A stretch of DNA of 64,000 nt from Candidatus Moraniibacteriota bacterium (GTDB taxonomy: Bacteria; Patescibacteriota; Minisyncoccia; Moranbacterales; UBA1568), in contig JAQTYF010000001.1 in NCBI GenBank assembly GCA_028688415.1, forward strand, positions 780,020 to 844,019. Reading direction: 5' to 3'. The notes under the pieces are model-generated. The model did no database searches and was not told the origin of the DNA. It worked only from the letters and a program-made list of their open reading frames with translations. Both the position numbers and the translations under genes were made by a program. Shown in pieces: positions 3,680-5,226 of this stretch; position 1 is the stretch's first letter; each line of letters begins with the position of its first letter.

Positions 3680-3712
3680 AAAACTAAAAGACCCAGTAAA
3701 TCTGGATCTTTT
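3680..3712 (-). terminator. hairpin terminator immediately after tRNA-Gly
   Basis: 10-bp stem with one mismatch (aaaagaccc-ag/taaat/ctgggatctttt) followed by a U-run on the minus strand. Confidence 0.5.
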
Positions 3713-3722
3713 AGTTCTTTTG

Positions 3723-3794
3723 AGCGGGTAAGGGGAGTCGAACCCCTATCTAATCCTTGGCAAGGACTCATAATAGCCGCTATACGATACCCGC
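3723..3794 (-). tRNA. tRNA-Gly (anticodon GCC)
   Basis: Manual fold: acceptor GCGGGTA/TACCCGC, anticodon loop TTGCCAA, T-loop TTCGACT. Confidence 0.8.
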
Positions 3795-3932
3795 TTACTC
3801 CGCCAGCTGGCGGATTCGGCGGACAAGCCCGCTATAGCCATCTGACATTTTTACTACACTCTCTATTTTTTTTATATTCTTCTATTCCTCTGTGGGACTG
3901 GTTGGAATCGGACCAACGACCAAGCGGTTATG

Positions 3933-4542
3933 CTTCTCACTATTGCTTTCACAACTTTTTTCAAATTTGTGAGCTGGACTATCCCTTCACCCAAAGGTAG
4001 GGTGTCTGCCGTCTAGTCTCTACACCTTCCTCAACAAACGAGGCTTGGCTCGGGATTGTCATGTAGCTTATCGCCATTTAGATTTCCCCGAATTTGACAG
4101 AGTATCACCCAAAGATTACTCTCTGGGCAGCCCTGCTAGATTCATTCGTTTTGTGTTATGATAATGTTATGAAAAAACTCATAACATGTGTGGTGTGTAA
4201 AAAAGAGTTGTCTGGCAGACAAACAGTTTTTTGTTCCGCCATTTGTAAAAACCAACTTCATCAATCATATCAATCCCAACAAGCCAGAGGCTTAGAGAGA
4301 AAGATGTCACTTTTGAAACAGTTTGGTGGAAAATGTTCAGTTTGTGGCTATAACAAAAATCTTGCCGCATTGACTTTTCACCATATTGACCCAAAAGAAA
4401 AAAGATTTCAGCTGGATATGAGATCTCTTTCAAACAGAAAGCAATCTCATATTGACGAGGAAGCAAGCAAATGTTTGCTTATTTGCAATAACTGTCACGC
4501 CGAATTACACAATCCACAACACAATTTAGAATGAACTCTTTG
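3933..4542 (-). mobile_element. group I intron in the tRNA(CAT) anticodon loop
   Basis: 5' exon ends in U33 and the intron ends in G. Conserved core elements occur in canonical order on the minus strand: P-like AAAUUCGGGGAAA (4081-4095), Q-like AAUCCCGAGCC (4047-4057), R-like UAGAGACUAGACGG (4009-4022), S-like GGGAUAGUCCAG (3974-3985). P7 pairs GACUA with UAGUC. Confidence 0.6.
4169..4534 (+). CDS. HNH endonuclease (homing-endonuclease-like), encoded antisense within the tRNA intron
   Basis: CVVCKK...CSVCGYNKNLAALTFHHIDPKEK...CNNCHAELH: zinc-finger plus HNH motif. The ORF extends upstream to 4094. Confidence 0.7.
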   Translation: MKKLITCVVCKKELSGRQTVFCSAICKNQLHQSYQSQQARGLERKMSLLKQFGGKCSVCGYNKNLAALTFHHIDPKEKRFQLDMRSLSNRKQSHIDEEASKCLLICNNCHAELHNPQHNLE

Positions 4543-4604
4543 AGCCGCGCGCTCTACCACTGAGCTACAGTCCCACTACGCTTTACCTATTGACTACTCT
4601 TTTC

Positions 4605-4634
4605 TCTTCACAGACTTTTGTGCCGAGGGACAGG
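4605..4634 (-). repeat. partial duplicate of the tRNA-Phe 3' end plus its 3' flank
   Basis: tcttcacagacttttgtgccgagggacagg is about 90 percent identical to 4793-4822. No complete cloverleaf can be formed. Confidence 0.5.
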
Positions 4635-4808
4635 TATTTCACTACTCGTCCTTCGGGCTGCGTTCTCTAGGACTTCCGTCCTTGAGTCCTGCTTCGCAGG
4701 TCACCTCAAACGGGCAAACAAATGTTTTCCCGACCCCTTTCCTGTTCAATCGTAACATTTTGAAAGGTTCTTGAGAACAACCTTATTCTTACTCTTTACA
4801 GACTTTTG

Positions 4809-4880
<72 letters not shown>

Positions 4881-4949
4881 ATCATCGCAAACAAACTCAT
4901 GTGTATATCCAGTGTATAACTCTTCTTTTTCTTTTTTATAAGCCGTTTG

Positions 4950-5023
4950 TGCGCGCTCAAGGATTCGAACCTTGGACCCCCTCGGTGTAAACGAGGTGCT
5001 CTAACCAACTGAGCTAAGCGCGC
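4950..5023 (-). tRNA. tRNA-Val (anticodon TAC)
   Basis: Manual fold: acceptor GCGCGCT/AGCGCGC, anticodon loop TTTACAC, T-loop TTCGAAT. Confidence 0.85.
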
Positions 5024-5052
5024 CCAATACTACTTACTATTCATTCATTCTG

Positions 5053-5135
5053 TGCCCAGGAGAAGACTCGAACTTCCAATCCCTTGCGAGAACTAGCACC
5101 TCAAGCTAGCGCGTATACCATTCCGCCACCTGGGC
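5053..5135 (-). tRNA. tRNA-Leu (anticodon GAG)
   Basis: Manual fold: acceptor GCCCAGG/CCTGGGC, anticodon loop TTGAGGT, long variable arm, T-loop TTCGAGT. Confidence 0.8.
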
Positions 5136-5226
5136 TTAAACCCACATTGGGTTATATACCTACACCATTCCGACTACTCAATTTGGGGAAAGACTCCAAT
5201 TCTTATCGAATCAAAGTCTGGGGAGG

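Follow-up and report, generated by a model that had tools for sequence, protein, structure and literature searches.

A Split tRNA(CAU) Gene in Candidatus Moraniibacteriota with a Predicted Group I Intron and an Antisense HNH Endonuclease Gene

Introduction

How can a transfer RNA (tRNA) gene that is interrupted in its anticodon loop, and whose interruption holds an endonuclease gene read from the opposite strand, still yield a tRNA, and what would the endonuclease do there? The question is raised by a 64,000-nucleotide (nt) stretch of a Candidatus Moraniibacteriota bacterium (assembly GCA_028688415.1, contig JAQTYF010000001.1, positions 780,020 to 844,019), hereafter the window, to which all unprefixed coordinates refer. 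A tRNA(CAU) gene on its minus strand is split by a 610-nt insertion with the architecture of a group I intron, and the insertion contains a gene for an HNH endonuclease on the plus strand. Our answer is that the locus is very probably a working split tRNA gene, in which a group I intron is predicted to splice and a self-promoted antisense HNH gene would drive homing of the intron.

Group I introns in the anticodon loops of bacterial tRNA genes have been known since 1990. In a survey of 4,934 complete genomes (Nakagawa et al. 2026, PMC13011429), 333 such introns are listed from 18 phyla, Patescibacteria among them, and the statement in the first-pass annotation of this locus that they are known mainly from cyanobacteria and proteobacteria is dated. 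According to the survey, only 12 tRNA introns have endonuclease genes, HNH genes are restricted to tRNA-Asn introns in Patescibacteria and tRNA-Leu introns in Bacteroidota, and no IC-class tRNA intron is present in Patescibacteria among complete genomes. It lists IC3 introns at position 33/34 of tRNA-Ile2 and concludes that horizontal spread is limited.

Results

Two Exons Form a tRNA(CAU)

The gene consists of two minus-strand halves of 32 and 40 nt, separated by 610 nt (table 1). Joined, they form a 72-nt cloverleaf with the anticodon loop CUCAUAA, which ARAGORN calls tRNA-Met(cat) and reports as 73 nt, with one base added. The two halves and the canonical tRNA that they form had been recognized in the first-pass annotation, where the length was likewise given as 73 nt. 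Junction offsets of 0 to +2 yield an identical product, and offset 0 alone leaves a U at the 5' splice site and a G (3933) as the terminal base of the intron. The earlier proposal that U33|C34 is the sole junction compatible with group I rules is therefore upheld. It is also the junction at which the U pairs with a G of the intron guide sequence, and this U.G pair is kept in 55 of 55 relatives.

Standard gene finding misses this gene. Default ARAGORN and the Rfam tRNA model, run over the window, reported seven other tRNAs and not the split one, whose neighbors are tRNA-Phe (4808-4880) and tRNA-Gly (3722-3794). The intron mode of ARAGORN detected an intron of 610 nt, misplaced it, and named the gene Leu-caa.

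The pairing of G1 with C72 and the anticodon stem CGCGG/CCGCU, rather than GGG/CCC, exclude an initiator tRNA. The best Escherichia coli matches to the spliced tRNA are all annotated tRNA-Ile, introns at the same site are labeled Ile2 in the tables of the survey (PMC13011429), and G27.U43 is kept in 49 of 55 relatives, with C27 in the window. By these similarities, we consider the product probably tRNA-Ile2 (CAU, lysidine type) rather than elongator tRNA-Met. The former label of elongator-type tRNA(CAT) thus holds for the anticodon and for the elongator features, with Ile2 the most likely identity.

Table 1. Features of the split tRNA gene, its intron, and the antisense gene (window coordinates)
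Feature	Position	Strand	Basis or detail
tRNA(CAU) 5' exon, tRNA positions 1-33, ends in U33	4543..4574	-	acceptor, D, and anticodon stems covary in 55 relatives
tRNA(CAU) 3' exon, tRNA positions 34-73, starts with anticodon CAU	3893..3932	-	intron-less alleles 68-71 of 72 identical, same synteny
Group I intron (predicted), 610 nt, IC3-like, last base G3933 = omega-G	3933..4542	-	Rfam match, ARAGORN length, alignment to published IC3 Ile2 33/34 introns
Catalytic core	3952..4149	-	Rfam alignment and helix-by-helix covariation
P1 5' strand: exon -5 to -1 (CGGCU) and intron +1 (C)	4542..4547	-	pairs with 4128-4133
Internal guide sequence GGGCUG (P1 3' strand)	4128..4133	-	5' splice site 409 nt upstream
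P1 extension, 5' arm = antisense of the final HNH codons (PQHNLE and stop)	4515..4539	-	folding versus shuffles
P1 extension, 3' arm = antisense of HNH promoter region	4138..4160	-	folding versus shuffles
P2	4109-4126	-	GUAA loop
P3	4096-4101 with 4005-4010	-	
P4	4086-4091 with 4050-4055	-	
P6a	4029-4043	-	
P7	4014-4018 with 3977-3981	-	GACUA/UAGUC
P8	3988-4004	-	
P9 region	3936-3973	-	two GAAA loops
HNH gene in the P1 loop, antisense to the tRNA, 121 amino acids and TGA	4169..4534	+	reading frame, PHROG match, homologues, AlphaFold
Extended -10 element TGtTATGAT (predicted)	4154..4162	+	conserved; hexamer end at 7 nt upstream of the A in ATG 4169

The Intron Has a Conserved Group I Core

The insertion was proposed in the first-pass annotation to be a group I intron, on the basis of P, Q, R, and S elements and a P7 pairing, and a covariance-model scan was named as a check. 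The Rfam model Intron_gpI (RF00028) matches the core over its full length (model positions 1-253) with 59.8 bits (E = 1.2e-12), above the gathering score of 50 bits, and the P7 pairing is kept without exception among relatives.

To score covariation, the interior of the open reading frame (ORF) was removed, 55 distinct sequences were aligned by MAFFT from sequence only, and the structure drawn for the window was evaluated on the alignment. Pairing is maintained at 97% in P2, 100% in P3, 95% in P6a, 95% in P8, 98% in P9.0, and 99.5% in P9b, with two-sided changes in 7 of 7, 3 of 6, 4 of 4, 5 of 5, 4 of 5, and 4 of 4 pairs, respectively. P4 and P7 are invariant or nearly so, and P7 is 100% paired. 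The stems of the tRNA covary as well. In a control where the 3' partner was shifted by one or two columns, pairing fell to 0-67%. RNAalifold alone gives P2, P3, P4, P6, P8, and P9; it did not recover P1 and P7, both of which are long-range or pseudoknotted. The P5 region contains an internal loop resembling a tetraloop receptor, and G is the last base of the intron in every resolved locus.

The E-value of the covariance model, together with an architecture that recurs in at least 70 independent genomes, excludes chance. We infer from its structure that the intron is a self-splicing group I ribozyme. It appears to be IC3-like, as its core is ~80% identical to those of two introns classed as IC3 in the survey tables (PMC13011429).

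The HNH Gene Lies within the P1 Loop

Because the guide sequence is so far downstream of the 5' splice site and pairs with the end of the exon, the whole HNH gene lies inside the P1 loop. The pair next to the splice-site U.G, at intron position +1, is C-G in 30 and U.G in 25 of the 55 relatives, and the guide sequence GGGCUGCC is also present in relatives that lack an endonuclease. Inward of P1, the predicted promoter region and the terminal codons of the HNH gene are the two arms of a closing stem. This stem has 20 base pairs (bp) and a folding free energy of -21.0 kcal/mol, versus -9.8 kcal/mol for shuffled sequences. Its sequence is too variable for column alignment, with 66% pairing by column; folded locus by locus, the median z is -3.2, and z is below -2 in 50 of 60 loci.

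The ORF runs from an ATG to a TGA at 4532-4534, covers intron nucleotides 9-374, and is a called gene of 121 amino acids without annotation in the NCBI record. The earlier description of an antisense HNH ORF in the 5' part of the intron is borne out by a match to PHROG HNH-endonuclease families (E = 2e-19) and by invariant Cys, His, and Asn residues; only its length, given as 122 amino acids, needed correction. The protein has two CxxC pairs and an HH...N...H motif, and across 42 homologues C56, C59, H71, H72, N89, C106, C109, H110, and H114 are invariant, as are 34 alignment columns overall. NCBIfam matches are weak (IscB at 19 bits versus a cut-off of 175; YajD below its cut-off). The AlphaFold model has a mean confidence (pLDDT) of 93, and such structural matches as it yields are mostly to HNH nucleases, namely Cap5, T4 endonuclease VII, the HNH domain of Cas9, and the Gme nicking enzyme. 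The nuclease is predicted to comprise a zinc ribbon and an HNH domain.

The ORF is intact in ~55 of 62 loci and frameshifted or truncated in ~7 of 62 (~10% decayed). Its 3' end is close to the splice site throughout the family. The stop codon is 8 nt inside the intron in the window and 23 other loci, the end of the ORF spans the splice site in ~25 loci, where its last A is the complement of U33, and in other loci the frame extends 15-101 nt through exon 1. The longer extensions, 41-101 nt past the 5' splice site and antisense through exon 1, occur in L061, L065, L071, L072, L073, and L026 (mostly Saccharibacteria and Peregrinibacteria; numbers with L denote the loci compared), whose proteins end in tRNA-antisense tails such as ...SIEPTALTTEL.

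A Conserved Promoter Is Predicted to Yield a Leaderless Messenger RNA

An antisense gene would need its own promoter, as the first-pass annotation reasoned, and this expectation is backed by a conserved TGnTAnnnT box that is placed to start transcription at the ATG. The consensus of 54 distinct loci aligned at the start codon is TG-n-TAtaAT-nnnGTT-ATG. The end of a TAnnnT hexamer falls precisely 7 nt upstream of the A of this codon in 48 of the 54, and no other offset is shared by more than 13 loci. The TG of an extended -10 element is found in 36 of 54, ATG is the start codon in all 54, and Shine-Dalgarno-like tetramers occur in only 6. In addition, hexamers resembling TTGACA or TTGATA are present 16-18 nt upstream in many loci, where they adjoin the complement of the guide sequence. 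Given the usual definition of -10, its position would put the transcription start at the A of the ATG, and the HNH gene is thus predicted to be self-promoted and to be expressed from a leaderless messenger RNA (mRNA).

The Split Gene Belongs to a Widespread Family

One genome per GTDB species was scanned for HNH relatives; 320 were found, and the best 80 loci were examined. A further 248 were found in viral contigs (IMG/VR), and the best 80 of these (L083-L162) were inspected. In a large protein collection, homologues fall into 225 clusters with 55-98% identity and lengths of ~121-129 amino acids. Taxon labels are those of the depositors, and several "Bdellovibrionales" labels look doubtful.

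The split-tRNA design with an antisense HNH gene is a widespread family and not a single locus. Among the best 80 loci, pattern matching identified an antisense HNH gene in a U33/C34 intron of tRNA(CAU) in 67 and ARAGORN in 3 more, with introns of 594-664 nt (median 611); most of the remainder are interrupted by contig ends. Hosts are labeled Moran-, Peregrini-, Gracili-, and Saccharibacteria and other Patescibacteria, Anaerolineae and other Chloroflexota, Latescibacteria, and Armatimonadota. The nearest relative is in a metagenome-assembled genome of Candidatus Moranbacteria, with an HNH protein 92% identical to that of the window and identical tRNA exons. BLAST of 3700-5200 against GenBank phages gave matches at the level of tRNAs only.

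ARAGORN in intron mode, applied to L003-L082, L084, and L087, names the hosts Leu, Ser, Gln, Arg, Val, Phe, and Pro; in its default mode it overlooks these split genes altogether, as does Rfam. The misnaming arises because the program forces the intron to a position after the anticodon; when the group I rule is applied, the loop reads CUCAUAA in every resolved locus. Eight Chloroflexota hosts that ARAGORN presented as class II tRNA-Ser or tRNA-Leu and four gammaproteobacterial hosts presented as tRNA-Gln or tRNA-Arg all proved to be tRNA(CAU) on direct inspection, and retargeting of the intron to other tRNAs was therefore rejected.

Intron-Less Alleles and Free-Standing Relatives

When metagenomes were scanned for the spliced junction, tRNA(CAU) genes without the intron numbered at least 120. 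Those in L176, L216, and L220 are identical to the spliced tRNA of the window at 71, 69, and 68 of 72 positions, and in all three the Leu(gag)-Val-Phe-[CAU]-Gly order of the window is kept. Close relatives thus differ in whether this one site holds the intron. With its gene inside the intron and this polymorphism in related genomes, the HNH enzyme has the pattern of an intron-encoded homing endonuclease.

Every resolvable HNH relative is linked to a tRNA(CAU) gene, which fits an enzyme that recognizes the DNA of this gene, the target we predict. Almost all of the best 80 viral relatives are within phage tRNA gene arrays, the closest of them beside tRNA(CAU). The closest phage-contig homologues (52-57% identity) are free-standing. 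In L083, L085, L086, L088, L092, and L094, the free-standing HNH gene is tail-to-tail with an intron-less tRNA(CAU) gene, an arrangement suggesting that the antisense orientation was probably inherited from a free-standing ancestor. The tRNA(CAU) gene adjoins the HNH gene in other arrangements in L090 and L091, and one phage contig, L087, has the complete intron design.

A third configuration is found in four gammaproteobacterial loci, L060, L070, L078, and L079 (L060 and L079 are labeled Granulosicoccaceae). A free-standing, divergent HNH gene is located directly upstream of the 5' end of tRNA(CAU), and the tRNA gene carries an ORF-less intron at 36/37, as in Azoarcus. Confirmation as group I by Rfam (65-86 bits) was obtained for L060, L078, and L079 only. 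A free-standing HNH gene beside a 36/37 intron could represent a collaborative or an intermediate state.

Two side observations concern the viral arrays. More distant viral relatives, which share only the HNH domain, are beside tRNA-Asn(GUU), often with odd tRNA-Asn calls of 85-90 nt that may hide sense-HNH introns at 35/36. Arrays adjoining HNH relatives also include transfer-messenger RNA genes (L106:151-426 and L095:966-1296), of cyanobacterial or permuted type and of standard type.

Discussion

A Probable Working Split Gene and Its Rivals

If the locus is a working split tRNA gene, as we think very probable, the minus strand would be transcribed within the tRNA cluster Leu-Val-Phe-[CAU]-Gly. 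The 20-bp stem would shut off the ~370-nt insert and bring the 5' splice site to the guide GGGCUG, so that P1 would form with U33.G at the splice site. External guanosine would then attack after U33, and omega-G would direct exon ligation. The product would be a CAU tRNA, most likely tRNA-Ile2, with C34 subsequently converted to lysidine. On the other strand, the insert would act as a self-contained cassette, in which transcription from the extended -10 element would begin at the ATG and give a leaderless mRNA. Other HNH enzymes of introns suggest, by analogy, that the nuclease may nick or cut tRNA(CAU) genes without the intron close to the anticodon loop; repair would then copy the intron into the cut gene. 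The antisense orientation would probably reflect descent from free-standing HNH genes.

Several observations weigh against this reading. No P10 of more than 1 bp was found in the window intron. The -35 element of the window is poor, and a generic promoter and terminator scan did not list the HNH promoter, so that the promoter claim for the window rests on conservation in the family. The score against Pfam HNH (PF01844) is 14.2 bits, below the cut-off of 21.4, and matches to solved structures in a PDB sequence search and in Foldseek are weak (E of 0.06 or higher). In the tRNA, the pair 27-43 (4548/3921) is C.U versus the G.U of the family, and the T loop (3911-3917) reads UCCGAUU, with C55 in place of the near-universal U55; positions 54-56 are thus UCC in the window and L003, and UUC in the remaining relatives compared. 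L003 also shares the C.U pair.

The C27.U43 pair and C55 speak for a reading in which the split tRNA is a pseudogene, inactivated by the insertion, with another tRNA decoding AUA or AUG. However, both oddities recur in the intron-less alleles L176 and L216, where changes in the T stem are compensatory; they look like a trait of the lineage, which argues against decay. Helices of exons and ribozyme alike covary across 55 genomes, and the U.G pair, omega-G, and the P7 pocket are all intact, making inactivation highly improbable. Still less credence can be given to a junction elsewhere and hence a different tRNA (Leu-CAA here; Ser, Gln, Arg, Val, or Phe in relatives). Although the intron-mode calls of ARAGORN give those identities, they vary by locus, whereas the U|...G| rule returns CUCAUAA wherever the locus is resolved; moreover, P1 pairing fixes the splice site, and the intron-less alleles themselves read CUCAUAA. 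A rival with somewhat more to commend it accepts splicing and denies homing: the HNH gene might now be a fixed passenger or encode a domesticated protein, such as an aid to splicing or a nuclease employed when phages contend with hosts or with one another over tRNA arrays. Free-standing HNH relatives are indeed abundant in phage tRNA arrays, and the design is old enough to be found in several phyla. We nevertheless regard the loss of homing as improbable, since the exact-site polymorphism in syntenic close relatives, the invariant catalytic residues, the occurrence of decayed copies, and the constant association with tRNA(CAU) genes all fit a homing cycle.

Beyond the reading of a working, homing split gene, a more elaborate scenario is possible, and we offer it tentatively, thinking it more likely wrong than right: a compact "antisense homing cassette" that hops between phyla. 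One pair of DNA segments would have three readings: a promoter, the C-terminal codons of the nuclease gene, and, in the tRNA precursor, the P1-closing helix. Head-on transcription of the tRNA operon and pairing of the two RNAs could make expression of the nuclease inverse to that of the tRNA. The cassette may have originated when a tRNA(CAU)-targeting, free-standing phage HNH gene inserted, without a change of orientation, into the P1 loop of an IC3 intron that was already in place. In the gammaproteobacterial arrangement, the 36/37 intron would disrupt the target of the free-standing HNH enzyme, as expected of an intermediate or collaborative state.

Relation to Known Systems

The kind of element is known, and the variant is not described in the literature searched. 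Its closest counterparts are endonuclease-free IC3 introns at 33/34 of tRNA-Ile2(CAU) in Acidobacteriota and in Bacillota_B (GCF_000018425.1), given in Table S5 of the survey (PMC13011429). They match the window in site and guide and probably in host tRNA type, have a GNRA loop in P2 as in the window, and are ~80% identical to it in the P3-P9 core; the window intron, in contrast, is from a Patescibacteria-like genome. These introns are 244-252 nt long, lack an ORF, and have a short hairpin in the P1 loop, and the sole large difference is the ~370-nt cassette of the window, a putative promoter and antisense HNH gene, in apical P1.

The tRNA-Asn(GUU) introns at 35/36 in Patescibacteria, in the entries of Table S3 of the survey (PMC13011429), resemble the window in phylum and in having an HNH gene in the 5' part of the intron, and their HNH domains are homologous to that of the window (41-49% identical). 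Unlike the window intron, they are of IA class, at another site in another tRNA, with the HNH gene in sense orientation, and their enzymes lack the extra N-terminal zinc-ribbon region.

A splice site at 33/34 of a CAU tRNA is shared by cyanobacterial introns that encode I-Ssp6803I (PMC13011429). The gene for I-Ssp6803I is in sense orientation. It lies inside a tRNA-fMet(CAU) intron and its product targets the anticodon region, but the intron resides in an initiator tRNA, and the fold of the nuclease is PD-(D/E)XK. Introns of the Azoarcus type in tRNA-Ile(CAU) probably share the tRNA species and the IC3 ribozyme type with the window intron, and differ in their splice site (36/37) and in having no gene inside.

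Antisense orientation of the HNH gene had been called unusual in the first-pass annotation. The description suits bacteria, but antisense homing genes have a precedent in group I introns of nuclear ribosomal DNA (rDNA) (PMC9548176). When full texts were searched for HNH or homing genes that lie antisense in a group I intron, these nuclear rDNA cases, with His-Cys box genes, were the only ones to emerge, and the words "antisense" and "orientation" are absent from the survey (PMC13011429) and from the group I intron database paper. In introns such as L2066 (PMC9548176), the endonuclease gene is opposite the ribozyme strand and needs its own promoter, as in the window; the setting is one of eukaryotic RNA polymerases I and II, the nuclease family and host gene are different, and spliceosomal introns interrupt the gene.

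The free-standing relatives call to mind another class of elements. SegB of phage T4 is reportedly a free-standing homing endonuclease of phage tRNA clusters. The phage relatives of the window HNH gene, between tRNA genes and next to tRNA(CAU), are similarly placed; SegB is a GIY-YIG enzyme, unlike the window HNH protein. Bonocora and Shub are said to have put forward in 2009 a model of "separate targeting then union". No description of a link between SegB-type elements and a tRNA intron was found in the literature searched.

What appears new is an antisense, putatively self-promoted, and probably leaderless HNH cassette in the P1 loop of an Ile2 33/34 intron. Also apparently new are the sharing of cassette sequence with the P1 closing stem, the spread of the cassette across phyla, and its connection to free-standing phage genes. 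This would be a bacterial case of an antisense homing endonuclease gene, self-promoted and probably leaderless, that shares sequence with ribozyme structure.

The family has practical consequences. Default finders miss the split gene and intron-aware ARAGORN misnames it (Leu, Ser, Gln, Arg, and others), so that many genomes of Patescibacteria and Chloroflexota will seem to be without an AUA-decoding tRNA-Ile2 or will gain false tRNAs. With 320 GTDB HNH relatives, of whose 80 best loci at least 70 have the intron design, and 248 viral ones, draft genomes hold far more of these elements than is reported in the complete-genome survey (PMC13011429). The free-standing, intron-adjacent, and intron-borne forms can be compared, which makes the question of how endonuclease and intron unite directly testable. 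The small size of the HNH nuclease (121 amino acids) and its predicted, highly conserved DNA target make it a candidate tool.

Neighboring Elements

Two other elements were observed in the tRNA cluster of the window or of its relatives. A structured insert of ~176 nt follows tRNA-Phe within 4623-4807 on the minus strand, between tRNA-Phe and the split tRNA, and terminates in a repeat of the tRNA-Phe 3' end with downstream bases (AATACCTGTCCCTCGGCACAAAAGTCTGTG). It has no Rfam match at E up to 10. Homologous inserts follow tRNA-Phe in L220, tRNA-Gly in L018, and tRNA-Leu(tag) in L245; they have in common a conserved hairpin (GGGGTCGGGAAAC...) as well as the motif GAGTAGTGA[AG]AT, and the hairpins covary between copies. 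Each terminates in a repeat of the 3' end of the tRNA beside it, giving the appearance of a scaffold with a variable, guide-like tail. In L013, the hairpin follows tRNA-Leu(gag) and the sequence then diverges, with no tRNA-copy tail, and the syntenic loci L216 and L176 are without the insert.

The other element is a group I intron of 242-247 nt in the tRNA-Phe(GAA) genes of the two nearest Moranbacteria-type relatives, L003 (2442-2761) and L013 (2423-2737), both on the minus strand, with Rfam scores of 57 and 87 bits; tRNA-Phe of the window is intron-less. The possibility that the 233-nt spacer after the window tRNA-Phe is a decayed form of this intron was rejected, as it neither aligns with the L003 and L013 introns nor matches Rfam, and it belongs to a separate small element. 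In L003 and L013, the split tRNA-Phe gene is beside the split tRNA(CAU) gene, and these loci thus have two adjacent intron-split tRNA genes.

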